Counted from the stretch's first letter, positions 6,305 through 49,129 are shown. The stretch: DNA of 64,000 bases from an uncultured Pseudomonadota bacterium (GCA_963836235.1 CAWIIP010000005.1:69353-133352), one strand, 5' to 3'. Numbers and translations are program-made. The notes: generated by a model not told the origin, from the letters alone.

Positions 6305-6312
6305 GGCTAATT

Positions 6313-10321: not shown

Positions 10322-10356
10322 ATACGAATTTCAGATCATTGAGAGCGACTCCGCCA

Positions 10357-11085
10357 ATGAAGCTACTAAAAACCGTCATTATGGTTCCCACCTACAACGA
10401 AAGGGCCAATATTGCCGAATTGGTCAAACTGCTTCATAAAAGCGTTCCACAGGCTGAAATTTTGGTCGTTGACGACTCGTCTCCCGACGAAACTTTCACG
10501 GAAGTTAAAAAATTAATGAAGAGAGACAAAAAGCTGCATTTGCTATTAAGGGATCGATCCATCAAAGGCAGAGGCTGGGCTGGTCGGGATGGATTTATGA
10601 AAGGTCTTTTAATGGGGGCTGACGCTATAGTGGAAATGGACGCCGACTTGTCCCATCAGCCGAAATTTATCCCTGCTATGTTGAAGCCCCTTCTTATCAA
10701 GGAAGCGGATGTCGTCATCGGGAGCCGTTATATGGAGGGCGGTAAAGATATGGATCGCCCCTTTCACCGCCAATGGACCAGCAATTTTGCCCGCTATTAT
10801 TTGAAATTTTTCTTGGGTTTAAGCCCGAAGGATCCTACTTCCGGATTCCGTGTTTTTTCAAAAGAAGCTCTTAGAAAAATCAAGGTTGAAACCCTAACAG
10901 CCCGCGATCCCTTCACGGTTTCTGAAATCTTGTACCGTTGTTCACGGGCGAAATTGAGGATAAAAGAAGTCCCGATTGAATTTATCGACCGGACCCGGGG
11001 CGAATCCAAATTACACCTTACTACTCTTTTAAAATACCTGGGCCGAGCCCTCTTACTCAGGCTTGGCCCTAATCCTCTCAACTGA
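10357..11085 (+). CDS. GT2 polyprenol-phosphate mannose/glucose synthase (Dpm1-like)
   Basis: MKLLKTVIMVPTYNERANIAELV, VVDDSSPDET and the DAD motif (EMDADLSHQP) are typical of Dpm1/Ppm1-type synthases. Start chosen at ATG 10357. The ORF-track start at 10213 would overlap the GT9 gene by 109 nt. Confidence 0.75.
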   Translation: MKLLKTVIMVPTYNERANIAELVKLLHKSVPQAEILVVDDSSPDETFTEVKKLMKRDKKLHLLLRDRSIKGRGWAGRDGFMKGLLMGADAIVEMDADLSHQPKFIPAMLKPLLIKEADVVIGSRYMEGGKDMDRPFHRQWTSNFARYYLKFFLGLSPKDPTSGFRVFSKEALRKIKVETLTARDPFTVSEILYRCSRAKLRIKEVPIEFIDRTRGESKLHLTTLLKYLGRALLLRLGPNPLN

Positions 11086-14813: not shown

Positions 14814-15265
14814 TTACAACACACCCTTCCTGCCCTACCACTCTATGCTACCTGATCGTGTTTATGACCATTCGACATATCAGGAAGTCGATGCTCACTA
14901 GTTTGGTATCGTCATATTTTTAAGAAGCCAGGAAATCGAAGATCAATTGACGGCTAAATTCTTTCGTCTTTCATTGCGCATTCCCCTGAATTCAATCAGC
15001 CAGAAGGCGGTTTCCAATCAACTCTTTCAAACAACACTTTTTCCAACTCATAATGGTTGTCAACCCGTCATAAGTAGGATTTACCCTCATTAAGCTTCAT
15101 TTTAAAAACCCATCAAAAACCTCTGAAGATTCCTTTCGCCAGTTTATCCGTTGTTTTTTCTCCGGTAGTCTCCAAAGTGAAAGATGTCGCAACCATCATG
15201 CGAAAGATGTTCTATTTACTTTAAATAAATTTCATCTGAAAAACCCGAAATCGAAGCCTCTTAAC

Positions 15266-18200: not shown

Positions 18201-18286
18201 AAAGCTGTCGGTAAGTTCTTCTTTGCCGCCAGCTTTCCTTTATGCTTTTTGGATGGCAAGCTCGGCTCCTCTTGACCAAAGTTCAA
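15266..18286 (-). CDS. PMT/ArnT-like GT-C membrane glycosyltransferase (GT39/GT83-like) with two C-terminal PA14-like domains
   Basis: About 13 TM helices. The first periplasmic loop is RAYQIASVPSGLFIDQGFEGLAALRILHEGWHPFYVEDVFHAYSLALFQL, typical of PMT_2/ArnT enzymes. The C-terminal soluble region has two PA14-like segments (GHLYVDVPGNYQWVIKADFPVVLKVG and GKFNVAESGHYQFFIQTDSQKELKIDNK). Confidence 0.7.
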   Translation of the reverse strand: MNFGQEEPSLPSKKHKGKLAAKKNLPTAFSNRAMPLQKNKNVINFIYFIALGLLVLGQVFIFKGRSGWGLTISLLAVCLGLATYFEEEIIFLFRKKRYSFIRPQKRRREIKIRPSKISFSSFPIKTIQPLAVLRGFGAVVSLVLAGIGQNYWAQSAEASTFPKGAWFFLAAVILFITSFWPWYREQLKKVSLDFKWEMFFLVFVMVVAIFMRAYQIASVPSGLFIDQGFEGLAALRILHEGWHPFYVEDVFHAYSLALFQLALWFKLFGSNEVSLKLFYAFLGLLGFPLIYWTFRQLAGIRIALLSLFILAVMRWNINFSRNGFPTVQMSLYMFGTIAFLIYAIHGSKSSKKQLFYAMTIGSCAFFVLGVFPFAFFSFYSMLLQMRLPLAILSGVLTLAVLSFLTFLVKTSKNREPLVATLIAAGFFVAGAYTYQAYKVFPLLILIYGLYEVFVNFKIVRILWKEIALFAGLSIVLCLPVIWNPQTREHDLMVHGLKQFLQVVGRTAIMFNRLGDPNARHNLQDYRMLDDISGALFVLGIAYSIFRVFRRKYFYVVVGFLVMSLPCVLSIDAAHANRLFALTPFIAFFVAAPISAFWGRIKSFGGEKNEWMFLVFLAPFLWLMAAQNFDVYFNKQAKSFGGWHEYAPQQTMVGRIIQKNGDAYNYYVSPDYYNYYTIDFLGYFYQKQTFPLLMPNSLISHSADTSRGLYFAMEEGKTGFIPMLQYFYPGGHDEYMVDPAGNTVEYFYKVPAEEVAKVRGLTAHFDREVGGKTDQQIAQFPSGLPAGPYHVTLTGHLYVDVPGNYQWVIKADFPVVLKVGKTRSSSRFESLIKGYYPVKVKMDVPEGVKPNLQIQQVSEKGVPTLLDAGAFDSLPPFRGLKGDYLRGPNWSETPYLSEYDPILNYTNGNDFTVPASAVHWIGKFNVAESGHYQFFIQTDSQKELKIDNKTPEMANGQNQEIYLMAGKHSIDIYGWRTGSNLSNFNLYWVKPDGKREVMPTSVFGEVP

Positions 18287-18718
18287 TCACGGTTTCTCAA
18301 ACAGGCTAGATTTTATTACCTTAACCAGCCTTAAAGAAGGATGAAATGTGATTTCAGCTGGTAAAACAAGTAAAAACCCTCAACTTTTTTAAAAAAATAT
18401 TTTCTTTTTCATCGGTTTTAAAAAATATACTCTTAAGCATAAAAGCTCTCTTCGTTTTATTCCAACTTACTCCCATGAAGCTTTAAAACCGAATAAGCAT
18501 CTATTTAAACAAGATGCCGGGCCAAAACCCCGGGAAGCCTTCCCTGACCGAAGAAATCATATTGAATATAGTTTGACTTCCGGCTTACAAAAAAATTTTA
18601 AAATCATTAAGAAGACCGCCCGTTAAAAAAACTAGTAACACGGTTAAAATGATCAACTTAATCATGATCATTTTTTGCGACTTTTTAAAAAATTTTAAAA
18701 ATTTTTTTCCAAATGTTA

Positions 18719-21070
18719 TTAAAGCTTTATCTTCTTGCCGCGGTTGGATCGTTTTGGGGAAAGAATTTCTTCTTTTGCCAATTCAACAGTTCTTGGACTC
18801 GTTTGTAAAGGCATGGAGAATGGCCAAATCCCTCCCAAAGAATCCCGGACCCACACTCCAAGACTCTGCCGCTTCAACCAGCCGATCAATAATACGACCC
18901 AGATAAAAAGTGAATACCAAAAGGTATAAACAATTATTCCCGGGTGATAGGACATTTTTACCGTATGATGACCTGGATTTTTAAGCTCCACAACACGGAA
19001 AGCTGAGTCGGCCTGATAAACAGTCTCTTCTTTTCCATCCACTGTGGCCCTCCAACCGGGATAGTAAGTGTCCGATAAAAATAGGAAACAAGGCCGGTTG
19101 TTAGTACAGTCCATCTCCAGGTCGTTGAAATCGTACTGGGTGATTTTCGCCGCTCCAACCCATCCCTGTGGCCAGGAAGGTTTTCCCTCCGGCTCGGCGG
19201 TCAAAATAACTTCTTGGTGCGCGTCCACCTTTGCATCGCGGATGTCGTAAACCGTTTGATCCGTATCGGGATCGACCTCATACCCCCCCACCATGAAGGC
19301 CCGGGGAAAGGCCTTCGTGTCCGTCATGTAACCCGCATTTCCAAGCAAGGGTTGCCATCGATCACTGACTTTCCACTCGGGTCGCTGAAAGCGGTAGGTC
19401 AACCGAATAAGATCAGGTAAAGGCGTTTCATTGTAACGCCATTGTTCCGCAAGATATTTATGGGAAGTCTGGATAAGTACGGGATACCCCGTCATAGCCG
19501 CAGAAATTCGGTGTAAAATTTCATAGTCCTCAATTCCTTCGGGTTGTACTCGCGGATAGCTATCGTCGAGCTGGATTTTTGCTAACAATGAAGGGTCCAT
19601 TATCGTTGCCGGGCTTAAAATAGAATAAGAATTGTCAACGACAAGATGCTTTTCGTCGAATCGCCAAAGATCTGTAATTGTTCCGATTAAAAGAAATCCG
19701 GGTGTCAAAAACAAAAGGAGGGCCCGAGATATCTGCCCAAGTTTCTGACCGCGCCAATACCTAAACCAAGCATCCAATCCCAGCCCCGCCAAACTCGATA
19801 GGGCAAAAGCGGTCACCACCATAATCCGCCCTATGCTTCGATTGTGGCCGAATCCAGGAAGATACTTGAAAAAAAAGAGGTAGAAGGAATGAGTAAAGGT
19901 GGTGGAGTCTCCCATAGCCAACAGAGTGCTGAAAAGAATAACAAGAAAAAGCCACCAAACAAAAGGTCGTTTCAAGAAAAGCCACAAAAATCCTAAAGAC
20001 GCCAAAAAAAATGGGATTAAACCAATATAGATAATGATCTCGTGATAACCCCAGCGCCCAATGTCACCTCCCGGCATCCCCAGAGCAAAAGGTTGAATGA
20101 GAATGCGTAAATACGAAGGAGAAAAATAATCTTTCATTAAATCGTTCCATTGCCAAACCCATCGATCACTCAATCGCGCAAACTGGTAGGCGGGGGCTAA
20201 TTGACACAAGGAAAGGGAGAAAGAGACAAAAACAAAAACTATCTCCGATAGCAGAAGTTGTTTAAACGTAATTTTTCGCCGCACCCATCCCCATCCAAGC
20301 AATAGTCCGCTAAACATCATGGCATACATGTTCATTTGCGGCATACCTTCCAGGACACAAAAACCCATAGCCACCGCAGCTAACAAAATGTCAGAAAAAA
20401 GGCCACTATTCGTGAACCGTTGGACACCAAAAAAAACGAAGGGAATCCAGCTGGCCGCCAAGACAATGCAAGTATGCCCAGCGAATAAGTGTCCAACAAA
20501 AAATCCAGAAAAAGCGAAGGATAGGCCGCCCAAACAACCCGCCAACCATACGCATCCCAAACCACGAATGAAAAAATAAGTTCCCACCGCGGCTAAAAGA
20601 AAATGGAAATAGTAACTTAAGGTGAAGGCATAAGAGACGGAAAAAATAAAAAATAGAAAATTGAGAGGAGCATAAGGACCAGACTCGGTCATAGCCAAGA
20701 AAGGTTGGCCTAAGGCACTAAAGGGGTCCCAAAATGCAGGATAAAAATTTTTGAGGCTTTGAATCCAAACATATTTGTAAGCATAGAAATAGGAAATATC
20801 CATGCAGCCAGGAACCATGTCCGGATGAGTCAAAGGCTTCCAAAAAACGAAGAGGGCAAAGACAGAAAACAGCAAGAACGCACTGAACGAACCTTTATTG
20901 AAAATTTTGGTCAAGGCTTGCTTTTCCAAGATATTTTCGTTTAATGAAATACTGGATATCCAAGAAAAGAAAGACTCACGCCGTCCGGGCGCTGGAAACG
21001 AAGTTGAAAATGACGGGTCTAAAATAATGCCTTTTGCCGGTACTTTCTGTTTTGGAATTGTTTTTTTCAC
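18719..21070 (-). CDS. YfhO-like GT-C membrane protein (paralog A)
   Basis: 783 aa with about 13 N-terminal TM helices. A large C-terminal extracytoplasmic domain is followed by a terminal TM (IIVYTFWYSLFIWVVLLIGWL). The N-terminal motif DISYFYAYKYVWIQSLKNFYPAFWDPFSALGQPFLA resembles the YfhO family. About 45% identical to the paralog at 32818-35148. Confidence 0.6.
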   Translation of the reverse strand: MKKTIPKQKVPAKGIILDPSFSTSFPAPGRRESFFSWISSISLNENILEKQALTKIFNKGSFSAFLLFSVFALFVFWKPLTHPDMVPGCMDISYFYAYKYVWIQSLKNFYPAFWDPFSALGQPFLAMTESGPYAPLNFLFFIFSVSYAFTLSYYFHFLLAAVGTYFFIRGLGCVWLAGCLGGLSFAFSGFFVGHLFAGHTCIVLAASWIPFVFFGVQRFTNSGLFSDILLAAVAMGFCVLEGMPQMNMYAMMFSGLLLGWGWVRRKITFKQLLLSEIVFVFVSFSLSLCQLAPAYQFARLSDRWVWQWNDLMKDYFSPSYLRILIQPFALGMPGGDIGRWGYHEIIIYIGLIPFFLASLGFLWLFLKRPFVWWLFLVILFSTLLAMGDSTTFTHSFYLFFFKYLPGFGHNRSIGRIMVVTAFALSSLAGLGLDAWFRYWRGQKLGQISRALLLFLTPGFLLIGTITDLWRFDEKHLVVDNSYSILSPATIMDPSLLAKIQLDDSYPRVQPEGIEDYEILHRISAAMTGYPVLIQTSHKYLAEQWRYNETPLPDLIRLTYRFQRPEWKVSDRWQPLLGNAGYMTDTKAFPRAFMVGGYEVDPDTDQTVYDIRDAKVDAHQEVILTAEPEGKPSWPQGWVGAAKITQYDFNDLEMDCTNNRPCFLFLSDTYYPGWRATVDGKEETVYQADSAFRVVELKNPGHHTVKMSYHPGIIVYTFWYSLFIWVVLLIGWLKRQSLGVWVRDSLGGIWPFSMPLQTSPRTVELAKEEILSPKRSNRGKKIKL

Positions 21071-21114
21071 ACGCTACTCCATTCCCTTTGAAAAGAAGGA
21101 ATTAAATAATTCGA

Positions 21115-23607
21115 TTAGGGGTTCTTAGCTGGTGTTACGAAAGAAGAGTTATTGTTCAAGTCTATGGAAAGTTCGTCCAAGGATTTATCCCATCCACCCG
21201 AAATGGAATGCACATGGACCGTTGGAAATTGGTGTTCCTGGATAAAAGCCGTCAAAATCTCAACCGAATGATTTCCTGCCGTGAGGTTTAACTTGGACTT
21301 TCGTGGAAGATTACCCTCGGGACTTTTGGTCACCAGTACTTCTCGCCCATCCACCCATAACTCGCTGGTATTGGCCGTTTGAAAACTGACTTCATATTCA
21401 CCCGGAGTGGTCACTTTCCATTCGCCCGTAATTCGGCCAACGTATCCGCCTTGTAGAAAAGGCGCGGGAACTGGATCGTTCCAACGAGCCTCCCGATCCT
21501 CGAATTGGATCATCCCCCGGCCCAAACCTAATCCCGCGTAAAAGCGCCGGAACCAATCAAAGGCGGGTTTGTACCGGACATAGAAATAATCAGTGGGATT
21601 CTGGGATAATTTTTCAAAGGGCACGATGATCCATTTAAGGGAAGTAATGGGCCAAGCGCTTACCCTTTCATGCCATGTTCCCTCAGGGAATGCCCTGCTT
21701 AATTTATCCTTCGCCGGATCATCTCCCCCCCAAATGACTATCGCCAAGTCTTTTCCCTTTTCCCCTTCCACGAGGTCGATGGGATTAGAGTCGATCGCCA
21801 GATGGGCGTCCCTTCCCTCGCAAACTAAGTCCAGTCCGCTTTCCCCAAAATGCGAAGGATTTGGAACTAGGTAAGCCCTTTTCCCGGCGATGGAAGGGTC
21901 ATCCAAAACATCCTGGGCCAGGGTATCGTTCCAGCGCATGTTCATCCATTTTTCCAAAATTTGGACGTTCGTAACCAATGACCAAACTCCGATAATCAAA
22001 AGTAGGACTGTCCCCCATTTCGCTCCATTCCGAATCGTGGAAAAACGAAAAGCTTGCCATAACCGGTAAGCCCCCCAGGCCGCGATCAGATACATTGGCA
22101 GAAGGGTCGCCATCAGGCGATTGGAATGGGCCCCGTGGGTCACGAAGAAGGCGGCGTATCCCACGAAGAAAAGACCAAGAGTAACGCTCTGAATGAGGCG
22201 GGGCCGCGCCAGGAAGGACGCTAAGGCCGCCAGGCCGAAAGCGGGCACGAAGAAATCCATATAGGAATCGCCCTTCATGGGGGGAATGTTCCAGAATGGA
22301 TTCTGGTCGTCCCAGCTGAATAAAAGCTTGAATCCATTCCAAAAATTCGCGATACAATATTTTGTCGCTTCCCATTTGGTCAACTCGAAGCGCGGATCGA
22401 AAATGACCATCTCATTGGGATGGGCCGAGTACCCAGGCTGCATCCAAAGGGGGCTTAACAACATGGCTGTTAGCAGGGACCCGGTGGCCCACTTCCAAAC
22501 CCAGTCATTTCCCCGGCTATCCAGCCCCACTCGAACATAAAGCGCGCCCAGGCCCGCCAAGATCATCCAGAGTCCCCAACCCGAACCGAAAAATTGCACC
22601 CATCCCCATTCGTGAGGCACAACTCGGTTCACGTAAAAAAAAGCGAAAGCCCAACTCAACATCACGGAGAAAGCCAGTGCCCAAGCCATCCGGTTTTTAG
22701 GCCTTAAGGACGGACTCCAAAGCATCCAAAGCCACAAACCTCCAATCAGGACAGGGGTCCAAAGACGAAAAGCCACATAGAGATAAGACCCCAGGGTCAA
22801 GGCCAACCCCCACGCGATGAAACGGGAAAGCTTTGGATTCTTCAAGAGCCGGAAGAGGAAAAGGACCACTAATGCGCAGGCCAAGACATCGGTGTGGAAG
22901 CCAAAATTAATTTTTGAAATTTGGATAAGGGTCTTGCTGATGGTCCCCATTACCATGAGGAGGATGCCTACCCGCCGCCCGCCCACTTCCTTGCCCAGAA
23001 GGTAAAAAGACCAAAGGATAAGAAGGTCCACCACAACGCAGGATATTCGCATGGCGACAATGGCGGTCGCGTGGGGCATAAGAGACCAAAGGGCAGCCGA
23101 AAAATAAGCAAAAAGCGGTTCTCTCGTACCATAAGGCAGGAGGATAGGCCGGTCTCCGGCCACCATGATTTGGAGCGCCTCATTGGCGTAAATCCAATGG
23201 TCATTGTCAATGCAACCCGATATCCGGTGCAGGTCATATAGCCGAAGGATGGCGCCTAACAAAAGAAGCCCGAAAAAAGCCGGTCGGGAAACAAGAGGAC
23301 CTATGTCACCTTCCGGCCCACTTTCGGGAATTTTCCGAAAGAAATAAACCATCCCGGCAAAACCCAGCAAAAGCAGCGGGTAAAATGGAAGTTTGGAAAA
23401 AAGATCCCAGCCAGGAATGAGGAGTTGGGCATTGGGAAGGGACAAGAGGGCCAGGAACGTCAAACCCCAAGAAGCCAACAAGCCCCAAAAAACAGGAGAC
23501 TTCACTATCACTTCGGAAGTCGAAAGAACGGGGACGGAAGTATTGATTTTTTTTACTCGAACGGACTTACGCTGCGGGACGGATTTGCGTCTTTTGGTGG
23601 ATGCCAT
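21115..23607 (-). CDS. PMT/ArnT-like GT-C glycosyltransferase with C-terminal PA14-like domain (tandem paralog 3)
   Basis: Basic N-terminal tail and 12-13 TM helices. GT39/83-like loop GTREPLFAYFSAALWSL. C-terminal GRGMIQFEDREARWNDP...GEYEVSFQTANTSELWVDGREVLV is a PA14-like fold motif. Confidence 0.7.
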   Translation of the reverse strand: MASTKRRKSVPQRKSVRVKKINTSVPVLSTSEVIVKSPVFWGLLASWGLTFLALLSLPNAQLLIPGWDLFSKLPFYPLLLLGFAGMVYFFRKIPESGPEGDIGPLVSRPAFFGLLLLGAILRLYDLHRISGCIDNDHWIYANEALQIMVAGDRPILLPYGTREPLFAYFSAALWSLMPHATAIVAMRISCVVVDLLILWSFYLLGKEVGGRRVGILLMVMGTISKTLIQISKINFGFHTDVLACALVVLFLFRLLKNPKLSRFIAWGLALTLGSYLYVAFRLWTPVLIGGLWLWMLWSPSLRPKNRMAWALAFSVMLSWAFAFFYVNRVVPHEWGWVQFFGSGWGLWMILAGLGALYVRVGLDSRGNDWVWKWATGSLLTAMLLSPLWMQPGYSAHPNEMVIFDPRFELTKWEATKYCIANFWNGFKLLFSWDDQNPFWNIPPMKGDSYMDFFVPAFGLAALASFLARPRLIQSVTLGLFFVGYAAFFVTHGAHSNRLMATLLPMYLIAAWGAYRLWQAFRFSTIRNGAKWGTVLLLIIGVWSLVTNVQILEKWMNMRWNDTLAQDVLDDPSIAGKRAYLVPNPSHFGESGLDLVCEGRDAHLAIDSNPIDLVEGEKGKDLAIVIWGGDDPAKDKLSRAFPEGTWHERVSAWPITSLKWIIVPFEKLSQNPTDYFYVRYKPAFDWFRRFYAGLGLGRGMIQFEDREARWNDPVPAPFLQGGYVGRITGEWKVTTPGEYEVSFQTANTSELWVDGREVLVTKSPEGNLPRKSKLNLTAGNHSVEILTAFIQEHQFPTVHVHSISGGWDKSLDELSIDLNNNSSFVTPAKNP

Positions 23608-23610
23608 AAG

Positions 23611-26157
23611 TTACCGAGTCCCCAGCACGGGGATGGATCCCTGCGAAGAAGCACCTGCCGCCAGTTCGTCCAAGGGAACTTCTCCTGCCGCTCCAGGAGC
23701 CGTAACCATGATCAGGGGAACTTGATGTTCCGCCGCGAAAGCCGTGACCAGTTCCACGTGATGGAGGCCCGCCGCCAGGGAAACCTCCCGAGTCTTCACC
23801 TGACTTTCATCGGGCTTCATTTCCAATACTTTTTTTCCATCCAGGAAAAATCGGAACACATCCCCGGTGTGTAGCTCCAATTTATATTCCCCGGGCGTTT
23901 GGACATTCCAATCCCCTTCCACCCGCATGGAATTATTCCAATCGATGAATTGGCGGGGGGGTAAGGAATCATTCCACCGGGCCGCACGGTCTTCATAAAG
24001 GATCAAACCACGGCCCAAGCCGTAATAACCATAGCACCTGCGCTTCCAAGTCTGGAGCGAAACCCGCCGGACATGAAAAAAAGCCTTCTCGTCTTGGGGA
24101 ATCCGGTTAAAGGGGATCTCGGTCCACCACATATATGGAATATCGCCTTCCCCTTGCAGATAATAACTCTTCTTTTGCCATTGGATTCCGGGAAACTCTT
24201 GCTCTATCTTTTTTTGGCTTTCCACGTCGCGTCCAGCCACGAAAACGGCCAAATCTTTTCCTTTTTCATCGGGCGTTAGGTCAATGCTATTACTATCGGT
24301 TGTTTGAAACAAATCGGCCCCGTCCGCCAAAACCTCCATGGCGCAAGCGGCATAAAAACCAGGATTGTGCTCCACAATATATACCCGGTGGTCGGGCATT
24401 TCCTTTCGGGCCTGATCCCAAACAATGGTGTTTTGGGCCTCCTGGGCGATCCACTCCCAAACGAGCTTATGATTCTGACCCGCTTCCCATCCCAAGCCCA
24501 AAAGGATCACGCCCACGAAAAGGCCGTTCACCCACTTTCCAGACCTGGTTTGAAGAAGGGCAAGCCAAAGCCTGTTAACACCCCAAGCACCCGTCAAGAG
24601 GAGGGGCAGATCGCAAATCACGTAACGGAAGGAATGAGGCCCGTTAGATAGGATTCCCGCCACCGTGCTGACGAAAAAAAGCGAAACGATAAAAGCGGAA
24701 AGCCACCTTGGTCTGGCGATAAAATAGGCGGCTCCCAATAGAGCGCAAGCGGCTACCATAAATTCGTAAAGCGAATCCCCGATGGCGGGCATGCGAGATA
24801 CGTGATCCACTTGCCCGAACAGAAGTTTGAAGGTGAAAGACGTGTTTCCGATAACCTTCGCCCAGCCTTGCCCCGGTTCGGTAAATTTGGAACTAAAAGC
24901 CGAGATATCCGCCACATGCTCCGAATAATGGGGATGAAGGTAAAAAGGAGCCATAATTAGCGCGGTCAAAAGAGCGCCGGTCGCCCACCCAAAAAGCTTG
25001 CTGAATCCCTTTTCTTTTTCCTCCAAGAAAACTTTCGCGTAACTTCCGGCTAAAGCCAGTGCCGCAAGGATGGCCCCGGGACCGGAAAGAAAGCGGACCC
25101 ACCCGCTGGTTTCGGGCAAGAAAGAGTTTTTATAAATGAAAAGGAACGCCCAAGCGACCAGGAGGCCTGGCCCCAGGACTAACCGATAAGGTCCAAATTT
25201 TCTTTCTTTTGGGTCGCTGAATACCCATAGCCAGGCCCCTCCCAAAAAAACTGGAACCCAAGGCCGGAAAGGCACGTAGGCAAAAGCCCCAAAACCGAGG
25301 GCCGCGCCCCATTCGAGGAAATGGGTCATATCGGGTTTCTTAAGAAGCCGGATGAAAAAGAGGGTCGCCGCCGCGCTGGCTAGGACCGCCGTATCGTTGC
25401 CATACTCAAACTTGGTAACCATAATCATGGTCTTGCAGATGGACCCCATGGCTAAAAGCAACAGACCCATCCTGCGTCCGCCGATTTCCTTGCCCAAAAG
25501 GTAAAAAAGCCAAAGTGCCGTCAGATCGATGATGACTGAGCTCCATAAAACGATGATCAGCCCGGGGGCCTTGGGAAATGGCACCCAAAGCAATGCGCTC
25601 AAATAGGGAAAGAGCGCTTCCCTCCATCCGACGGGAAAGAGGAAATAAAACTTGTGGAAGTCCAGCATGTTACGGATATCGGAATCGATCGTGTAATGAT
25701 CGTCCCAGAAAAACCCGACAGGTTGGTTAGGATTTTCCAATCGGAAGAAAGCCCCGACAGCCATAAAAAACCAGAAACCGGTTCGGGCTGCCCAAACAGG
25801 AATATCCCACTCTCCTTCCTGCACAGGTGGTATCAACCTAAAAAAAACTATCAACGCGATGAAGCCAACCGTAACCAGCAAGCCCCCGGGAAGCCTGGCA
25901 AACAAATTATCCGGAGGAAAAGCTTGGATTTGATTGAGAATAAAAGCGTTCCCCTCGTGGAAAAGCAGATTGTAATTAGGAAAAGCAAAAAGACCCGCCA
26001 TCACCACCAACCATGCGATGAGAAGGTATACGAATTTTTCCAGCCCGAAAGAAGCCGATTCGGGCGCCAAAACCGCCACAGCCCTTGGGGCCTTCGCCTT
26101 AGAGAACGGTTTAATATTCCGGGTAGATTTTTTTCTAGACGTTTTTCGGGTTGGCAT
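23611..26157 (-). CDS. PMT/ArnT-like GT-C glycosyltransferase with C-terminal PA14-like domain (tandem paralog 2)
   Basis: Same architecture as its neighbours (REALFPYLSALLWVPFP loop; C-terminal GLGRGLILYEDRAARWND...GEYKLELHTGDVFRFFLDGKKVLEM). It ends 3 nt before the next paralog starts. Confidence 0.7.
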   Translation of the reverse strand: MPTRKTSRKKSTRNIKPFSKAKAPRAVAVLAPESASFGLEKFVYLLIAWLVVMAGLFAFPNYNLLFHEGNAFILNQIQAFPPDNLFARLPGGLLVTVGFIALIVFFRLIPPVQEGEWDIPVWAARTGFWFFMAVGAFFRLENPNQPVGFFWDDHYTIDSDIRNMLDFHKFYFLFPVGWREALFPYLSALLWVPFPKAPGLIIVLWSSVIIDLTALWLFYLLGKEIGGRRMGLLLLAMGSICKTMIMVTKFEYGNDTAVLASAAATLFFIRLLKKPDMTHFLEWGAALGFGAFAYVPFRPWVPVFLGGAWLWVFSDPKERKFGPYRLVLGPGLLVAWAFLFIYKNSFLPETSGWVRFLSGPGAILAALALAGSYAKVFLEEKEKGFSKLFGWATGALLTALIMAPFYLHPHYSEHVADISAFSSKFTEPGQGWAKVIGNTSFTFKLLFGQVDHVSRMPAIGDSLYEFMVAACALLGAAYFIARPRWLSAFIVSLFFVSTVAGILSNGPHSFRYVICDLPLLLTGAWGVNRLWLALLQTRSGKWVNGLFVGVILLGLGWEAGQNHKLVWEWIAQEAQNTIVWDQARKEMPDHRVYIVEHNPGFYAACAMEVLADGADLFQTTDSNSIDLTPDEKGKDLAVFVAGRDVESQKKIEQEFPGIQWQKKSYYLQGEGDIPYMWWTEIPFNRIPQDEKAFFHVRRVSLQTWKRRCYGYYGLGRGLILYEDRAARWNDSLPPRQFIDWNNSMRVEGDWNVQTPGEYKLELHTGDVFRFFLDGKKVLEMKPDESQVKTREVSLAAGLHHVELVTAFAAEHQVPLIMVTAPGAAGEVPLDELAAGASSQGSIPVLGTR

Positions 26158-26179
26158 TTTTTCTCCCTCGCTTTAAAAC

Positions 26180-28621
26180 TTATTGACCCAGGACTTGGGA
26201 GAAACCAATTCCCGGATTTCTGATGGTGACGTCCTCAAACCAGGCGTTCGATATTAAAAAAGATAAATAATGAATTTGATGAGGGCCTTTTGAAAGAAAA
26301 CGAGTCTGAGAAACTGCGTGAGGCCTTATCCATTCGACCGGAATGGACGAAAGGGCTTTCTTCCCGTCGATCCAAATTTGAACCGGATTGGGACTGTTAA
26401 TGGTAAAGGTATATTTCCCATTCTCCGGTACCATCCATTGGCCGTCCGCTGATACAGAATGAGCCCCCATTCCCCCAGGTAACGGGTTCAATTTGGCGTT
26501 AGAATCTTCATACTGAATCATGCCTCGTCCCAAGCCAAAGTAAGTGACATAAACGCGTCGGAGCCACTTTTTTTCCGGAACCACCCGAAACATGAACAAC
26601 TTTCCTGGCTTTTCGGGTATGTCCCCTGCGGGAATGACCACGTCATACATGGTGGGAGGGTCCGCCTTTGATTGGTAATATTCCCACTTTGGAATCCATT
26701 GGGCCTTAGGAAAATCCTTCTTCAATATAGGGGCCCATTGTTTATCCAGCCCGGCAATAATAACGGATAAATCCTTACGAGGCTCGTTCGCAAGAACATC
26801 AATCACATTGGTGGTCTGTAGCAGGTAAAGAGGCTCGCCATCGTGAATGACCCCCTCCACTGCAGGAGAAGCATACCCCATTCCGTCATAAACCCCCATG
26901 TAAACCCGTTTCGTCGGAAGTTGATCCGATATTTCCTGGGAAACCAGGATGTCGGGCCGCATCATGTTCCACCACTTATCGTAAACCCTGGTGAAAGTGC
27001 TCTTCCCTTCCCACGCCCAAAAGACCGTCAGGCCCAGGATTAGAAGAATGCCCATCCAGCGCCGAACGCCCTTTCCGGCCATGAACCCAGAAACCCACTC
27101 TTCCAGTCCCCAGCAGGAAAGCAGCATCATGGCGGGAAAAGCCCCCAGAATTTTCGCGCTGGTGGGATCAACCGTCATAAGTCTGCCGGCCACGCCCACA
27201 AAACAACAAAGGACTAAAAACAACCTGGTCCAAGAAAAGCGGGAGACCGCGAAAACCAGTCCCACGAAGGCCAATACGGCCGCTTGGTAATCAAAAAAGG
27301 GATCGCCTTCCACGTTCATGTCCGAACGGTCATCACCGGTGACAAAAAGGGTCCGGACGCAGATGGACAACTGGGAGATCATGGCGCGTAAGGGGATACG
27401 TTCATCGTGGATTTTAATCGTGATTTCCGGGTCCATCGCCAGCGGATAAACCAAGAAGCCGGCCAAAAGAACGCCCAACCCCCAACTCACCCACAACCGT
27501 TCCTTGCCCTGGGCGGTCCGATAGAAATATCCCATGGCGGTAAAGAGCAAGACTTGGATCACCATCCAAACGGTGAGGTTCCAGCTCCAAAATTTGGAAA
27601 TGGGATTGCTTGGAAAAACGAAGAACAGCCTGTCCAGGAGGAAAAGAAAAAGCCCGGAAAAGGCCGGGATAAGGAAAATAGCCAGGGGCCAGCGGATGGA
27701 TCGGGCCCTCTCCTTCCAAAAAATCCAGGCGAAAGTGACGAAAGCCAGGAAAAGCATCCAAGGCCGATAGGCGATGTAACTATAGAAGCCAAAACCCAAG
27801 AGGAACCCCCATTGAAGAAAATGGGACAAGTCGGGCTTGCGGAATAGGCGGAATTGGAACCAAAGGATAAGGGTAATGATGAAGGGAAGGGTCAAGCCCG
27901 GCATCCCCCCGAGGTTCTGCATGATCATGGGCTTGCTGAAGGTGCCCAGAGCCGCCAGGAAAAGTCCCGTCATCCTTTTCCCCGTTATTTCCCGGCCTAA
28001 CCGGTAAAAGAGCCAGCCCGCCCCGACGTCAAATAGTGTTGAGGTGATTCTTTGCACCAAGAGACCTTTCATGGTCGGGAAAAGCGACCACAAACCCGCC
28101 GCTGCGTATGGGTAGAGGGGTTCCCGGTGGCCGATGGCGAAGGTCATTCGGAATACGTGGAGCTCAAAAATATTGCAGGGATCGATAATGCAAATGGCGG
28201 GATCGTCCCAATAACGTCCCATGGGTTGGTCGCCCCGGTAAAGCCTCATATAAGCGGTCAAGGCCAAGAGACCCAAGAGAGCCGGGTAGGCAATCAATCG
28301 GGGTACATCCAAAGAAGTGGGTTGGGAAGGAAGTCCTCGAAAACCCAAAAATAAAATAAAGGCCGCCAGCCACAGGAGAAAGTTTAAGTGATTGACCGGT
28401 AGCGGGAAAGGAACCCCCAACCACCGAAAGGCATCGAACTGCAGGAAAACCGCCCCCACCAGCAGGAAACCCAGTAAAAGAAGAAAAAAAGTTTCAGGCG
28501 CGACGCGGGTCGGTGGCGCGGCAAGTGTAGAAACGGCGGAAGGGTGGGCCGTCCCCCCTTCCTTTTTCAAAGGAAAGGTCTTCCGGCGGACGACTCTCCG
28601 TTTTCGGTTAGGCTTGGCCAA
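26180..28621 (-). CDS. PMT/ArnT-like GT-C glycosyltransferase with C-terminal PA14-like domain (tandem paralog 1)
   Basis: Same architecture (REPLYPYAAAGLWSLFP loop; C-terminal GLGRGMIQYEDSNAKLNP...GKYTFTINSPNPVQIWIDGKKAL). It starts 38 nt downstream of the NHL gene on the same strand. Confidence 0.7.
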   Translation of the reverse strand: MAKPNRKRRVVRRKTFPLKKEGGTAHPSAVSTLAAPPTRVAPETFFLLLLGFLLVGAVFLQFDAFRWLGVPFPLPVNHLNFLLWLAAFILFLGFRGLPSQPTSLDVPRLIAYPALLGLLALTAYMRLYRGDQPMGRYWDDPAICIIDPCNIFELHVFRMTFAIGHREPLYPYAAAGLWSLFPTMKGLLVQRITSTLFDVGAGWLFYRLGREITGKRMTGLFLAALGTFSKPMIMQNLGGMPGLTLPFIITLILWFQFRLFRKPDLSHFLQWGFLLGFGFYSYIAYRPWMLFLAFVTFAWIFWKERARSIRWPLAIFLIPAFSGLFLFLLDRLFFVFPSNPISKFWSWNLTVWMVIQVLLFTAMGYFYRTAQGKERLWVSWGLGVLLAGFLVYPLAMDPEITIKIHDERIPLRAMISQLSICVRTLFVTGDDRSDMNVEGDPFFDYQAAVLAFVGLVFAVSRFSWTRLFLVLCCFVGVAGRLMTVDPTSAKILGAFPAMMLLSCWGLEEWVSGFMAGKGVRRWMGILLILGLTVFWAWEGKSTFTRVYDKWWNMMRPDILVSQEISDQLPTKRVYMGVYDGMGYASPAVEGVIHDGEPLYLLQTTNVIDVLANEPRKDLSVIIAGLDKQWAPILKKDFPKAQWIPKWEYYQSKADPPTMYDVVIPAGDIPEKPGKLFMFRVVPEKKWLRRVYVTYFGLGRGMIQYEDSNAKLNPLPGGMGAHSVSADGQWMVPENGKYTFTINSPNPVQIWIDGKKALSSIPVEWIRPHAVSQTRFLSKGPHQIHYLSFLISNAWFEDVTIRNPGIGFSQVLGQ

Positions 28622-28659
28622 GTTAAAGAACCGCCCTCTGTGTCATGTTATCCGTTTAA

Positions 28660-29682
28660 TCAGGGAGTCGTTGGCGGCAATTGGTACAAGCCGACATGAT
28701 CGCCGCCGGCTATCATTAAAACATCGTCCGGGCTAACGGCCAAACCCCGGTCTCCCTGGATCAACACTCCTTTTTCATCCGTGAGGTCTCCCAGATAGCC
28801 GGTTTTAATACTATAGGCTTTCACGCAGCTGTTTCCGTTGGTGGCCGTGGAAACGAAGAATCTACCGTCTTTGTCCACCGCAACGGCAGCGACGCCGGCC
28901 TTGTACTTGAAAACCTTGAGTACTTTTCCGTCCTGGTCAAGCCATTGAAGACGCTCGTTTTCCGAATCGGCGACGAAATAATTCCCCTTCCCGTCCGAAG
29001 CCACGTCCAAAGGACTTTTGAATTGACCTTCGTCGGTGCCAAATCTTCCCCAAGAAGCGGCAACATGGCGATCAGGGGCGATCAAAAGAATTCTGTGGCT
29101 TCCCGTGTCGGCCAACAGGAAATTCTTCCCGTCGTAACCGATTCCCCGGGGGCCGTAAAGGTTTTTATCCCCTAAGTCGAGGTTTAATATTTGTTTTCCA
29201 TTTTCGTCATAACCCTTGATGGTACTGTTCCATGTATCGATTACATAACCGAACCCCTTATCGTCGGAAACCATTCCAGAGGGTTCATGAAAGCCCACAG
29301 AACCGCCTCCAGGCTTCCCCCAACTTTTTAAGAGGTTGCCCTTCCGGTCGAAAACCAAGACGCGGTTGTTTCCCTGGTCGACCACCATGACCTTGTCCTT
29401 CCCAACCGGCCCCACGCCCCAGGCGTTAAAGGGACCGCACTTGCTGTTTACACCCGAAAAGGTGCTGAGGGTCTGGACTTTGTAATCCTTAGGGACTTCC
29501 CCGTGGAAAAGGTTCATGCTTTCCACCAAGCAACCGATCAAGACCAGGGCTATCAATATCCGGATAACCGCCTTGCTTGAGCCAGACGCCGGGGGCGACA
29601 CCAGGGGTGGCGCTACGGGGGTTGTATACGCCGTCCCCCCCAAGTTCTTTTTTTTCGCGCTAGTTTTTTTCCGTGGCGGCAT
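28660..29682 (-). CDS. Membrane-anchored NHL-repeat beta-propeller protein (paralog 2)
   Basis: Lys-rich tail MPPRKKTSAKKKNL, a Pro/Ser-rich linker, one TM helix, then NHL blades. About 75% identical to the 37619-38641 product across the propeller. It is the first gene of the NHL/GT-C/GT-C/GT-C/YfhO gene string. Confidence 0.7.
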   Translation of the reverse strand: MPPRKKTSAKKKNLGGTAYTTPVAPPLVSPPASGSSKAVIRILIALVLIGCLVESMNLFHGEVPKDYKVQTLSTFSGVNSKCGPFNAWGVGPVGKDKVMVVDQGNNRVLVFDRKGNLLKSWGKPGGGSVGFHEPSGMVSDDKGFGYVIDTWNSTIKGYDENGKQILNLDLGDKNLYGPRGIGYDGKNFLLADTGSHRILLIAPDRHVAASWGRFGTDEGQFKSPLDVASDGKGNYFVADSENERLQWLDQDGKVLKVFKYKAGVAAVAVDKDGRFFVSTATNGNSCVKAYSIKTGYLGDLTDEKGVLIQGDRGLAVSPDDVLMIAGGDHVGLYQLPPTTP

Positions 29683-29715
29683 AAACCCTCCAATGAGATT
29701 CCAAATTTAGACGTC
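29683..29715 (-). promoter_or_regulatory. Conserved 5' leader/RBS element shared with the paralog at 37589-37618
   Basis: The 30 nt directly upstream of the ATG (GTCTAAATTTGGAATCTCATTGGAGGGTTT, minus strand) match the leader of the NHL paralog at 37589-37618 (GTCTAAGTTTGGGATCTCATCGGAGGGTTT) at 27 of 30 positions. Sequence further upstream and the first ~30 codons are unrelated. Confidence 0.4.
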
Positions 29716-30179
29716 CGACCCTGAATTCATTCTTTAATTTCAAAAAATAGAAGACCAAAAAAATCAACCCTTACCAGTGCCAGAATAAAAGCATAAAATC
29801 GGGCCCGCCCGAAACACGGGGTTTTTCACAAAAACACAGGGATTTTCCTTCGTAGAATGGCAAGGCCAGTAGGATATAACATCCTTTCGGCGATAACAAA
29901 GATTTTTTGGTGGTTGAACGCCTAAAACTTTCATGGCACCGTTCGAAAAAGGGCATTAACCAGGGGCAGTGGCATTGAGGGGGTGGAAGCCCAATCCGAA
30001 CGCTACCAACGGACACGCAAGCGTGTCTTCGCCTATTCTCAAGCCGTAAAAAATGGCTTTAAATTCAAACCTCAGGGCATCTTTACGTTTGTGTCCTACC
30101 CTTGACCCAAGTCAAGGGCCCCCCGACGCCAATTGGCAGCTGCATCCGGATTCAAAACCATCGGATGATCAAGTTTGAT

Positions 30180-32414
30180 TTAGTTCCATAGAGTTGTCCA
30201 TGAGTCCCTCTGCATGAACCAATCGGTCAAAGCCGGAAAATTGTGGCGCATGTAATAATATTCGTTGAAGGGGCAATCGTCGGTAATAACGATGCGCTTA
30301 TTCGAGTTGGTAAATCGGGCGTCCACGGAGTCCCCCAAAAAATCCCCCAGCAAGCTCTCGAGGGTTGTGCCAGAAGGCGCCCATTCCAGCATGTCGGCTT
30401 GGGCGGCAGGCGGTACCCTCGTAATCAACTCACTCACCGCAGGCACCTGGATGGGCTCCATGGAAGCGACATAATAAAGGCCGCCGACATTTCGGGTAAC
30501 AGTAGGAAAAACTTTGACATAGGGAAAGGACTCGAGGATGGTCCGGTTGAAAGCATTATCGGTATTGTAATTGTCCGCGTAATACCAAATTTGAAAAAGA
30601 CCTCCCTTTTTCAAGTGCGCCTTGATGATGCTAAAAAATTCCTTGGACAACAATAGGCTGCAGCCCGCGGCTTGCGGCGGCGGAGGCGGGTCAATGACAA
30701 TAACGTCATAAAGATCCTTCGTGCGCTTCAGGTATCTCCGGCCGTCGTCGATGACAACCTTGGCTTTGGGATTGCTCATTATTTTTTCGGCGTCGTCAAA
30801 AAAATACCCAAAGGAATCCCTCACGCTGGGGGTCAACTCCACGGCCGTGGTATCAATGCCCCAACTAACGAGAGACCGGAAGGACCCCCCCATCCCGAAA
30901 CAAATGGTCAAGGCGTTTTCAGGTTTGTGATCCAGCAAGCATAGGGGTATGTGGGCCATGAACTTGGTTGTGGTTCTAAGAACTGTCATTCTAATACCAT
31001 TGACGTATAACATCCGGTCAAAACCCGTGTCAGCGCAAATGACGGTAGCGTTGTAATCTCGGCGGACGACCCCCTTCACGAGCGTCTCATAACTATTGCT
31101 GATGAGAACAGAAACGAACATAAGAAGGATGGCGGCGGTGGGCACGGCCAGCTCACGAGGTTTCAGCGCCTTCCAATGCTTCAGTATCAGGATTAAAAAA
31201 GGGAAAGCCAAAAGCGCTAAGGAAAGCTTCACTCCCAGCCACGGAAGACAGAGATAGGAAGCGAGCAGGGGCCCCAAAATGCATCCAATCACGTTCACCG
31301 CATAAGCCTTCCCGGCGTTTTTGGGATTCCCTCGACCGATTTCGTCCACCAACTTGGGGGTCAGGTACCCCAGAATGGCGCAAAAAGGGACGATGGTCAG
31401 AAGAATGCAAAAAGTGGAATGGTTAAATCGGGGATCGGTGAACACGACCGGGAAAAGGGAAAAAACAGCCACCCAAGCCAGGAGCATTTGATGGGTGAGT
31501 TTCTTGGCAAAAACCCATCCGGACCGGTAAACAAGGGAGCCGATCCACGTCGACAAAAGATAGGTGAACAGGATCGCGCCGAAAGAATAGACCTCGTTTC
31601 CGATGATGGGAATGAAGGCCCTGGTCCATATCACTTCCATGGCCATGGAGCCGAAACCGCTGAGGAATAGAATGCTCACCATAAGTTTCGTGTCAGGCCG
31701 CCAAAATGGCCGGGAATCCAGTTCGGGCTTCGTTTTTTTACCCGCTCTGGGGGCGGCTTTGGTTTCCGATGGCCATATTCTCAATACGATACCCATGGCG
31801 ATCCCCAAGAAAGCGACGCTGAAATTCATCAAGGCCCCAATAATAAGGGTTCCTGAAAAGCCGAGTAGTTCGATGAAGGCAATGACGGTAAGAAAGGTCC
31901 CCCCCAGGGCGCCCAGTACATTCGCCACATAAAGATAGCTGAAACTGGTCGTCTCGGAAGGTACCCTTTCCTTAACAAAAGCCATCATGAGGGGAAAAGT
32001 CGCCCCCATAAAGAAGCACCAAGGAAGGATGGAAATCGCGATAAACATCGCCGAGGCAAGGAGATAACCGAACGAATTCATCTCGCCGAACCCCAAGAGA
32101 ACGCTCGAGCTCCAATGAAAAAGTTTAGGTACCGCGAAAGCTCCCAGGCCGATAAATAATTCCGCCAAGGCGTAGAAAAAGATCGGCGAGATTTTCAACT
32201 TTCCCGCTACGCGCGAAACCCAGACCCCGGCCAGCCAAGATCCAAGGGCTAAACCCATCATGAAGATGGAAATGACGACTGAGAGAACGGGGGTATTGAC
32301 CCCATAGGTGGCGTAGGCCAAGCGCACCCAGACGATTTGGTAAAGCAGCCCGCAAAATCCGGAAAAAAAGAACATAAGAAACACGAAGGGAAAAAGGATT
32401 TTATTTTTTTGCAA
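30180..32414 (-). CDS. Fused MFS-like transporter / spermidine-synthase-like (PABS-fold) protein
   Basis: N-terminal ~480 aa carry 12-14 TM helices of MFS type. The C-terminal ~260 aa have a class-I MTase/spermidine-synthase-like fold (ALTICFGMGGSF ... VVIDDGRRYL ... DVIVIDPPPP) with a degenerate GGGDG motif. Confidence 0.7.
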   Translation of the reverse strand: MQKNKILFPFVFLMFFFSGFCGLLYQIVWVRLAYATYGVNTPVLSVVISIFMMGLALGSWLAGVWVSRVAGKLKISPIFFYALAELFIGLGAFAVPKLFHWSSSVLLGFGEMNSFGYLLASAMFIAISILPWCFFMGATFPLMMAFVKERVPSETTSFSYLYVANVLGALGGTFLTVIAFIELLGFSGTLIIGALMNFSVAFLGIAMGIVLRIWPSETKAAPRAGKKTKPELDSRPFWRPDTKLMVSILFLSGFGSMAMEVIWTRAFIPIIGNEVYSFGAILFTYLLSTWIGSLVYRSGWVFAKKLTHQMLLAWVAVFSLFPVVFTDPRFNHSTFCILLTIVPFCAILGYLTPKLVDEIGRGNPKNAGKAYAVNVIGCILGPLLASYLCLPWLGVKLSLALLAFPFLILILKHWKALKPRELAVPTAAILLMFVSVLISNSYETLVKGVVRRDYNATVICADTGFDRMLYVNGIRMTVLRTTTKFMAHIPLCLLDHKPENALTICFGMGGSFRSLVSWGIDTTAVELTPSVRDSFGYFFDDAEKIMSNPKAKVVIDDGRRYLKRTKDLYDVIVIDPPPPPQAAGCSLLLSKEFFSIIKAHLKKGGLFQIWYYADNYNTDNAFNRTILESFPYVKVFPTVTRNVGGLYYVASMEPIQVPAVSELITRVPPAAQADMLEWAPSGTTLESLLGDFLGDSVDARFTNSNKRIVITDDCPFNEYYYMRHNFPALTDWFMQRDSWTTLWN

Positions 32415-49119: not shown

Positions 49120-49129
49120 TTTAGACCTC

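Follow-up and report, generated by a model that had tools for sequence, protein, structure and literature searches.

A conserved pairing between an NHL propeller gene and PA14-bearing GT-C glycosyltransferase genes in the candidate phylum FCPU426

Background

Both periplasmic glycosylation by membrane glycosyltransferases of the GT-C type and the tandem arrangement of GT-C paralogs have been well described, the nearest in layout to the locus reported here being the mycobacterial embC-embA-embB genes (CAZy GT53). Our locus lies in a 64,000-nucleotide stretch of DNA from an uncultured bacterium (GCA_963836235.1, CAWIIP010000005.1:69353-133352), the whole of which we call the window. It is a string of five genes encoding a small membrane-anchored NHL propeller (NHL_C), three GT-C paralogs with a C-terminal PA14 domain (GTC1, GTC2 and GTC3) and a YfhO-like membrane protein (YfhO2). 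What is new is the PA14-bearing GT-C family itself, which is uncharacterised, and its conserved, clade-specific pairing with the NHL propeller. To our knowledge, acceptor choice is not known for most bacterial GT-C enzymes, and the pairing provides a concrete case of a candidate partner protein for such an enzyme. The lineage concerned, FCPU426, is a candidate phylum of soil and peat of which, as far as we know, no member has been cultured and no cell envelope characterised.

Like GTC1 to GTC3, the emb genes are three tandem, co-directional paralogs whose products span the membrane with about 15 transmembrane (TM) helices and end in a carbohydrate-binding domain in the periplasm. The donors of the Emb enzymes are polyprenyl-phosphate sugars, and EmbA and EmbB act as a heterodimer. 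The structures of EmbC, EmbA/B and AftD are among the fold matches of GTC2. However, there is no sequence relationship (a profile of the GTC family finds no Emb protein in the Protein Data Bank, PDB), the C-terminal domain is of the PA14 type rather than the Emb carbohydrate-binding fold, the GTC proteins have about 830 amino acids against some 1,100 in Emb, the phylum is another one and Emb genes have no NHL partner. In EmbC the C-terminal domain is a lectin-like carbohydrate-binding module that binds the acceptor glycan (PMC3044687).

A second point of comparison is the three-component system of extracytoplasmic glycosylation, which consists of a GT2 polyprenyl-phosphate sugar synthase, a GtrA-type flippase and a GT-C enzyme such as YfhO or GtrC (PMC5836110, PMC11127046). 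The island that surrounds our string also combines a YfhO-like protein with two GT2 proteins resembling ArnC, Dol-P-Man synthase and GtrB, and the predicted logic is the same, a single lipid-linked sugar being transferred outside the cytoplasm. The island differs in having eight GT-C-type genes instead of one and no flippase matched among open reading frames (ORFs) of at least 150 amino acids; moreover, the YfhO match involves only the C-terminal 75 residues or so, and nothing evident in the window points to a teichoic-acid context.

In the protein O-mannosyltransferases of the GT-C class (PMT/GT39, TMTC and TMEM260), an additional recognition domain, MIR or TPR, lies on the lumenal or periplasmic side; the accessory domain of the GTC proteins is PA14. 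Further likenesses are weak PMT_2 matches in GTC2 and GTC4 (a fourth GT-C gene of the island), the presence of Pmt4 among the fold matches, and a TMEM260-like gene with TPR repeats in the island, which recurs beside NHL genes. However, the PMT_2 match of GTC2 is below cut-off, GTC1 and GTC3 have none, MIR is absent, and PA14 is a carbohydrate-binding type of domain, not a protein-binding repeat.

Finally, in pilA-tfpO of Pseudomonas and comP-pglS of Acinetobacter, the substrate gene stands just upstream of a dedicated membrane transferase; TfpO and PglS belong to an O-antigen-ligase-like family and move preassembled oligosaccharides onto pilins. The order is the one seen here, with the gene for a small secreted or membrane protein followed on the same strand, after a short gap, by the transferase gene. 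In those systems, however, the substrates are pilins, not propellers, and no string of paralogous transferases follows.

Results and discussion

An NHL gene is paired with GTC1-type genes

We re-derived the five minus-strand ORFs as an earlier note on this DNA had laid them out (Table 1), with spacers of 38, 22, 3 and 44 nucleotides along NHL_C-GTC1-GTC2-GTC3-YfhO2. That note had also read the position of the NHL gene at the head of the string as a hint of a functional tie to the enzymes. ORFs from 20 different related loci were assigned by comparison with the proteins of the window, and a neighbour-joining tree was computed for the GT-C ORFs (loci and contigs are designated by L numbers, homologous proteins by P numbers). 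Of the 21 genes of the GTC1 supergroup, 12 have an NHL gene as their next upstream neighbour on the same strand, versus 2 of the 48 genes of the other clades, with NHL-to-GTC1 gaps of roughly 30-110 nucleotides. Because of this difference, the NHL protein appears, from gene neighbourhood, to be tied to the GTC1-type enzyme and not to the array as a whole. The link suspected earlier is thus real and specific to the GTC1 clade, but it is neither array-wide nor phylum-wide.

An NHL gene occurs within 10 kb in 15 of the 20 distinct GT-C loci, and the converse search, starting from three NHL homologs on long contigs, led to adjacent GT-C genes each time (3/3). The earlier note had reasoned that its proposal would fall if the loci of related genomes lacked the NHL gene. 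In the close clade it stands, the NHL-first order being kept in all seven near relatives with a readable upstream region (L003, L007, L009, L011, L013, L018 and L029), whereas in part of the phylum the gene is indeed missing from the neighbourhood. In the more distant L006, L020, L021, L022 and L024, the NHL gene comes after or between the GT-C genes. Among the papers searched in full text, none combines NHL repeats, GT-C and glycosyltransferase, and none of the FCPU426 titles and abstracts listed addresses this locus.

The NHL_C protein and its relatives

The AlphaFold2 model of NHL_C (pLDDT 88.8) shows a basic, disordered N-terminal tail, then a single TM helix (residues 36-59) and a propeller of six four-stranded blades. 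By the positive-inside rule, the propeller would be periplasmic. Its best Foldseek matches are the ligand-binding NHL domains of TRIM2/3/71, Thin and Brat, with target-normalised TM-scores of 0.76-0.83 against the TRIM2/3, Thin and Brat domains. The residues conserved in the family are structural NHL-repeat positions. The periplasmic part contains no Ser/Thr-rich linker, the propeller begins about 10 residues past the TM helix, and the close homologs of NHL_C all have about 340 amino acids with no fusion.

Elsewhere in these loci, NHL domains are found fused to other modules: to a domain with a GDS...H motif in NHL_B, to PA14 in P0115, and to an Agl23-like GT-C tail in P0143. This pattern fits a binding module. 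In P0143, a partial protein, the tail is weakly similar to Agl23/TIGR03663 (E 7e-4) and is followed by NHL in one reading frame. A search with this tail found a single protein; on its contig, L027 (2510-7895), from another lineage, Agl23-like fragments are likewise followed by NHL, in a frameshift-broken arrangement. As sequences, P0143 and L027 are suggestive of a fusion of the GT-C and NHL partners, although this is unproven.

The best PDB sequence matches of NHL_B are SOQ1 and NHLRC2. Its C-terminal domain has an IVGDSHT motif and a C-terminal xH(F/Y)NxxG, which in the alignment recall SGNH/GDSL hydrolases. We considered an SGNH-like assignment, which would rest on the GDS...H motif, but it is unproven, the serine not being invariant among five homologs. 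The domain alone has no PDB sequence match, and Pfam finds only the NHL repeat on NHL_B (E <= 0.01).

NHL_C has an inverted paralog in the window, NHL_D. The inverted similarity joins positions 28907-29712 and 37589-38391, reaching about 30 nucleotides upstream of each start, and the two genes flank a block of about 8 kb containing a gene for a major facilitator superfamily (MFS)/spermidine-synthase fusion, YfhO1 and two methyltransferase genes. Two members of the NHL_C family, P0040 and P0044, are also encoded on the L007 contig (273,567 nucleotides), with 77% and 63% identity to NHL_C, respectively, and this closest relative may thus have the duplicate too.

A small family of PA14-bearing GT-C proteins

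The earlier note described three clearly related genes, and they are indeed full-length paralogs of 813-848 amino acids. Full-length BLASTP alignment gives 35% identity for GTC2/GTC3 (E 3e-143), 29% for GTC1/GTC2 (E 5e-89) and 27% for GTC1/GTC3 (E 2e-60), a relatedness far above chance. The loop motifs that it quoted, REPLF, REALF and REPLY, can be read in the proteins as TREPLFAY, WREALFPY and HREPLYPY, and sit in a block with an invariant R179 and a nearly invariant E180. D153, in a WDD motif, and R179, in the RE motif, are invariant across 35 sequences. In the model of GTC2, both lie in the loop after helix 121-140, amid two short helices that precede the next TM helix. GT-C enzymes keep catalytic acidic residues in a loop of this kind. 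Judging sidedness from the basic N-terminus, the loop would be extracytoplasmic.

The GT-C/PA14 architecture proposed in the note is borne out by the AlphaFold2 model of GTC2, built on 35 family members (pLDDT 88.5, pTM 0.89), which has about 15 TM helices followed by a C-terminal beta-rich domain. A Foldseek search of the PDB returned, for the membrane part, only GT-C enzymes, namely AglB, PglB, STT3, ArnT, AftD, EmbC, ALG9/12, AftA and Pmt4 (probability 1.0, E 1e-7 to 1e-3), together with EmbA/B, and the predicted fold thus places GTC2 in the GT-C superfamily. The C-terminal part matched the PA14 domains of fungal adhesins (Cea1A, Epa9), GH31 xylosidases, a yeast beta-glucosidase and RsgI3. 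At the sequence level, when the family profile is compared with PDB sequences, the PA14 part alone finds relatives (6qdi, E 2e-7; RsgI3, E 4e-7), and the Pfam PA14 model scores 25.2 bits on GTC1, above its cut-off of 24, and 22.1 bits on GTC3, below it, with no match on GTC2. The C-terminal domain of the paralogs is PA14.

Could these proteins belong to a described family? STT3 and PMT were considered, and we assign the proteins to neither: no WWDYG-like motif occurs among the conserved C-terminal residues of two family alignments, Pfam finds no MIR domain in the GT-C proteins, whose additional domain, a PA14 type, is at the C-terminus, and PMT_2 scores 20.2 bits on GTC2 against a cut-off of 26.1, with no match on GTC1 or GTC3; GTC4 alone clears it, narrowly, with 26.7 bits. 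Among PDB sequences, the family profile picks up none of STT3, PglB and AglB, the likeness being at the fold level only, and no NCBIfam model matches GTC1, GTC2, GTC3 or GTC4.

The family is small. A profile search of 1.84 billion cluster representatives, defined at 50% identity, retrieved 183 clusters at E <= 1e-30, mostly full length, and a word-indexed search of 5.8 billion proteins retrieved 38 members. As far as named genome records show, the family is largely limited to FCPU426 metagenome-assembled genomes (MAGs) from soil, peat and groundwater.

Ancient paralogs kept in a conserved order

The note interpreted the three GT-C genes as a tandem duplication followed by specialisation and named pairwise alignment and dN/dS as checks; we ran both. 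The interpretation holds as ancient paralogy in which each copy has long been kept, but not as a recent event, since the paralogs, with 27-35% identity, have no DNA similarity and belong to old clades. Indeed, GTC1, GTC2, GTC3 and GTC4 form four separate old clades with orthologs in several FCPU426 genomes, and the paralogs share no DNA-level repeats. A recent duplication or gene conversion among them was ruled out on these two grounds. Measured against the closest relative, L007, dN/dS is 0.07-0.13 for all six genes compared, ratios that are rough as dS (1.1-1.9) is near saturation; on this estimate, purifying selection acts on all of them.

The order NHL-GTC1-GTC2-GTC3-(YfhO or PMT_2-type gene)-GTC4 is found in L003, L007, L009, L011 and L013, with 55-87% identity to the window orthologs. 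GTC4 orthologs lie downstream in L003, L007, L009, L010, L011 and L018. Two places in this order deserve attention. The first is the GTC2-GTC3 junction, which measures 0-7 nucleotides in every genome with both genes (six genomes, including L003, L007, L009, L010 and L011); in L017, there are three successive GTC2-like/GTC3-like pairs. Because of the short junction and the repeated pairs, GTC2 and GTC3 may be two subunits made in a fixed ratio and acting as a pair, for which EmbA/EmbB provides a precedent. The second is the slot between GTC3 and GTC4, where a PMT_2-type GT-C gene of 679-685 amino acids replaces the YfhO-like gene in L003 (14983-17040), L005 (12553-14592) and L029 (14301-16352), and where L011 has neither type. 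This looks like one membrane transferase type swapped for another.

Two details of individual relatives may be added. In L007 (7545-9978), the GTC1 ortholog is split into overlapping ORFs (7545-8222 and 8128-9978), through a frameshift or an assembly error. The array of L017 (1-21906) consists of seven tandem GT-C genes alternating between GTC2-like and GTC3-like, then three NHL_B-like genes of 485-665 amino acids, on the same strand.

Spacing, translation starts and transcription

A purine-rich stretch resembling a ribosome-binding site precedes each of the five starts, with GGAGG at that of NHL_C. The TTG and GTG starts are supported because the Lys/Arg-rich N-termini of the string proteins align with those of their homologs.

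The note had further held that strong promoters or terminators inside the short spacers would argue against its reading. Our consensus scan found no promoter-like and no terminator-like site in the four spacers, with window-wide counts at chance level, and the only intergenic hairpins with a T-run flank the string. The upstream hairpin may be the 5' boundary of a transcription unit and the downstream one its 3' boundary, as far as the sequence pattern indicates. It is plausible that the five genes are carried on one transcript, because the spacers are short, contain neither hairpins nor promoter-like sites, and keep their spacing in relatives.

Other candidate signals were sought and discarded. 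A pattern search found no sigma-54 promoter upstream of NHL_C (window-wide counts below chance), and sigma-70 promoters and terminators occur at chance level in the window, with none in the short spacers. The 497-nucleotide region upstream of NHL_C contains no convincing ORF and folds as ordinary RNA (z = -0.16), and Rfam has no match anywhere in the window. The G+C content of the window changes from about 0.42-0.45 (positions ~6000-22000: NHL_B, GTC4, YfhO2 and the lower-coordinate genes) to about 0.50-0.53 (22000-48000: GTC3 and the higher-coordinate genes). The step falls within the proposed operon, near the GTC3/YfhO2 junction, and the YfhO slot also varies among relatives.

A possible periplasmic glycan-assembly module

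What might this string do? The reading that we favour, if with little more than even confidence, is that it forms the core of a lineage-specific FCPU426 module for periplasmic glycan assembly from lipid-linked sugars, in which the NHL protein would be a dedicated partner of GTC1. The donor of the GT-C enzymes is predicted to be a lipid-phosphate-linked sugar. Sugars would be attached to polyprenyl phosphate by cytoplasmic GT2 enzymes encoded nearby. The two GT2 genes of the island, whose nearest relatives of known structure are ArnC, Dol-P-Man synthase and GtrB, are the expected donor source. GT2-made polyprenyl-phosphate sugars feed GT-C enzymes in mycobacteria and Firmicutes (PMC3485146, PMC5836110). 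Once flipped to the periplasmic face, the lipid-linked sugars would be used there by the GT-C enzymes. GTC1, GTC2 and GTC3, as paralogs that have all been retained, would be non-redundant, each responsible for a different linkage or step. The PA14 domain of each may hold a carbohydrate acceptor, by analogy with the C-terminal modules of EmbA/B/C and with sugar binding presumed from the domain family. GTC2 and GTC3, which their short junction marks as translationally coupled, may act as a pair, and the YfhO-like enzyme and GTC4 would contribute additional steps. The NHL protein, anchored in the inner membrane and by its predicted topology facing the periplasm, would either present the acceptor to GTC1 or be itself the first acceptor.

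Between these two roles we lean slightly to that of a non-catalytic adaptor, because NHL domains of these loci occur in fusions, a Ser/Thr-rich linker is missing from the periplasmic part of NHL_C and GTC1 brings a PA14 domain of its own. If the propeller is an adaptor, it would represent a new class of accessory subunit for GT-C enzymes; if it is the acceptor, it would be a new type of bacterial glycoprotein.

Several observations weigh against this module. No NHL gene lies within 10 kb of the GT-C arrays in L001/L012, L005, L015, L025 and L026, and these loci include two with GTC1-type genes (L005 and L025/L026); because of these five related loci, the NHL protein is not universally required in cis. 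The MAG that contains the NHL-less L001 array does have an NHL gene elsewhere, beside a TMEM260-like GT-C. The Fisher p-value of the NHL adjacency, 2e-6, is uncorrected for shared ancestry. In fold, GTC2 is best matched by protein oligosaccharyltransferases and not by polysaccharide enzymes, and a GT-C fold does not reveal the acceptor. Pfam matched no GtrA flippase among ORFs of at least 150 amino acids, smaller ORFs being outside that scan. Lastly, the terminator-like hairpins that bound the string are not commoner than in shuffled sequence.

The alternative that fares best is that the propeller is a glycosylation substrate which GTC1 primes and the downstream GT-C paralogs extend, giving a membrane-anchored glycoprotein or proteoglycan; a substrate role was the first that the earlier note named. 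We regard it as possible but on the whole doubtful. With the NHL gene immediately ahead of GTC1-type genes, the order recalls that of pilA-tfpO and comP-pglS, and L024 has three NHL paralogs in tandem behind a single GT-C gene, as would befit one enzyme with several substrates. In addition, TMEM260-like/TPR GT-C genes, whose family Pfam calls protein O-mannosyltransferase, are found near NHL genes (in the window, L023, L028 and L029), the best fold matches of GTC2 act on proteins as oligosaccharyltransferases, and an archaeal S-layer YVTN propeller appears among the fold matches of NHL_C. However, the short stretch between the TM helix and the propeller of NHL_C offers no Ser/Thr-rich linker, GTC1 carries PA14 like its paralogs, which suggests a carbohydrate acceptor, and NHL domains in the same loci are fused to enzyme-like modules. 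A conserved N-glycosylation sequon in NHL_C was ruled out by inspection of the alignment, WNST, the one N-x-S/T sequon checked, not being conserved in the family.

In its strongest form, the substrate hypothesis makes the NHL protein an obligate protein primer to which GTC1 would add the first sugar and on which GTC2/GTC3, the YfhO-like enzyme and GTC4 would build a long glycan, yielding a membrane-anchored proteoglycan. We think this unlikely; if true, it would be a form of protein glycosylation so far undescribed, carried out wholly by periplasmic GT-C enzymes.

Alternatively, the genes may form an Emb/Aft/Mpt-like GT-C array that builds an envelope polysaccharide or lipoglycan, the NHL gene being merely co-located and its product having no contact with the enzymes. 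The embCAB-like layout, in which three paralogs in tandem each combine about 15 TM helices with a carbohydrate-binding domain at the C-terminus, is consistent with this, as are the arrays that lack NHL (L001, L005) and the presence in the window of inositol-1-phosphate synthase and CDP-alcohol phosphatidyltransferase genes, which could supply a phosphatidylinositol anchor. Yet a shared island does not explain an adjacency that is both tight and specific to one clade (12/21 vs 2/48, with gaps of ~30-110 nucleotides), and NHL homologs taken as a starting point lead to GT-C neighbours as well (3/3). Pure co-location is therefore improbable, though less so than an enzymatic role for the propeller. 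That NHL_C would be a pathway enzyme whose substrate is the glycan or a precursor (for example a lyase, lactonase or esterase) is very improbable: the SGL/gluconolactonase and ScyF models match it weakly, below threshold, PAL and virginiamycin B lyase figure lower in its list of fold matches and some database sources label its homologs 'sugar lactone lactonase YvrE', but its best fold matches are non-catalytic, ligand-binding domains, every enzyme-family score is below cut-off, and family conservation at structural NHL-repeat positions reveals no metal-binding or catalytic set.

The surrounding glycosylation island

The string belongs to an island of about 37 kb (roughly 6.3-42.8 kb of the window) with eight membrane GT-C-type genes, four NHL genes, two polyprenyl-phosphate-sugar synthase-like GT2 genes, four methyltransferase genes and a GT9 gene (Table 1). 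A 37-kb stretch with eight GT-C-type membrane transferases is a large commitment to one task. Beyond the string delimited in the earlier note, related genes on the same strand are YfhO1, the MFS/spermidine-synthase-like fusion, GTC4 and NHL_B.

Table 1. Positions of the string genes, flanking hairpins and island genes in the window
Feature	Position	Strand	Description	Basis
GT2	7124..7828	+	Polyprenyl-phosphate glycosyltransferase-like	PDB: ArnC, Dol-P-Man synthase 5mlz, GtrB, E ~1e-16
NHL_A	8029..9033	+	Small NHL propeller with membrane anchor (third of this type), 33% identity with NHL_C	Pfam, BLASTP
GT9 and second GT2	9197..11085	+	GT9 (heptosyltransferase family) and Dol-P-Man-synthase-like GT2	Pfam; GT2 vs 5mlz E 4e-28
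NHL_B	12768..14813	-	681 aa; signal peptide, NHL propeller, ~300-aa C-terminal domain with GDS...H motif	Pfam NHL
GTC4	15266..18286	-	1006-aa GT-C; PMT_2 26.7 bits, C-terminal PA14 27.7 bits	Pfam; conserved downstream neighbour
Hairpin with weak T-run	18517..18533	-	In 432-nt AT-rich gap past YfhO2	Pattern scan
YfhO2	18719..21070	-	783 aa; YfhO-like polytopic membrane protein (GT-C type)	
GTC3	21115..23607	-	830 aa; GT-C/PA14 paralog, start 3 nt after GTC2 stop	
GTC2	23611..26157	-	848 aa; GT-C/PA14 paralog, the one modelled	
GTC1	26180..28621	-	813 aa; GT-C-fold membrane glycosyltransferase, C-terminal PA14	
NHL_C	28660..29682	-	340 aa	Pfam NHL 62.6 bits
GC-rich hairpin with T-run	29799..29812	-	117 nt upstream of NHL_C start	Pattern scan
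MFS/spermidine-synthase-like fusion	30180..32414	-	Fused MFS-like membrane and spermidine-synthase-like domains	Pfam Spermine_synth; NCBIfam NF037959 62.5 bits
YfhO1	32818..35148	-	Second YfhO-like membrane protein	Pfam YfhO 36.1 bits
Two methyltransferases	35219-36280, 36284-37093	-	Class-I SAM methyltransferases	Pfam Methyltransf_11 and related
NHL_D	37619..38641	+	Inverted paralog of NHL_C, 66% aa, 76% nt	BLASTP, inverted repeats I1-I3
GH125	38745..40639	-	Alpha-mannosidase-like, two frameshifts	Pfam GH125 on 202-aa ORF
TMEM260-like	40712..42805	-	GT-C with C-terminal TPR repeats	Pfam PF11028 66 bits and TPR families

Some of these genes also accompany NHL genes in relatives. An ortholog of the MFS/spermidine-synthase fusion lies directly upstream of NHL in L013, as does an ortholog of YfhO1 in L011. 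The TMEM260-like gene adjoins NHL genes in L023, L028 and L029, and the order TMEM260-like, GH125, NHL is common to the window and L029. The NHL_A-GT9-GT2 arrangement of the window (8029-11085, plus strand) is conserved in L006 (2862-5703), and on account of it NHL genes in this phylum can be said to accompany cytoplasmic glycosyltransferases as well. As listed, the GT9 and GT2 ORFs overlap by 109 nucleotides; the TTG start of GT2 is probably placed too far upstream.

YfhO1 and YfhO2 share 49% identity (BLASTP). The Pfam YfhO model (PF09586) scores 36.1 and 36.0 bits on them, respectively, against a cut-off of 28.5, but aligns only over profile positions 756-831 of 835, that is, the C-terminal ~75 residues. 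The GH125 gene, of an exo-alpha-1,6-mannosidase family, has its two frameshifts about 100 nucleotides apart, near 39431-39531, and the intact 622-residue ortholog of L029 matches it in three separate frames (tblastn). The broken copy is either a pseudogene or an assembly error.

Outside the island, a myo-inositol-1-phosphate synthase gene adjoins a CDP-alcohol phosphatidyltransferase gene (58212-59896, minus strand); together, their products could make phosphatidylinositol. Bacteria seldom contain this lipid; mycobacteria use it as the anchor on which GT-C enzymes build lipomannan and lipoarabinomannan. Directly beside the island, the minus-strand region 43082-55461 encodes a mannose-type phosphotransferase system (PTS; EI, IIB, IIC and IID) and a GH57 amylase/glucanotransferase, together with a cluster of rpoN, hpf, a PTS EIIA_2-family gene (ptsN-like) and hprK.

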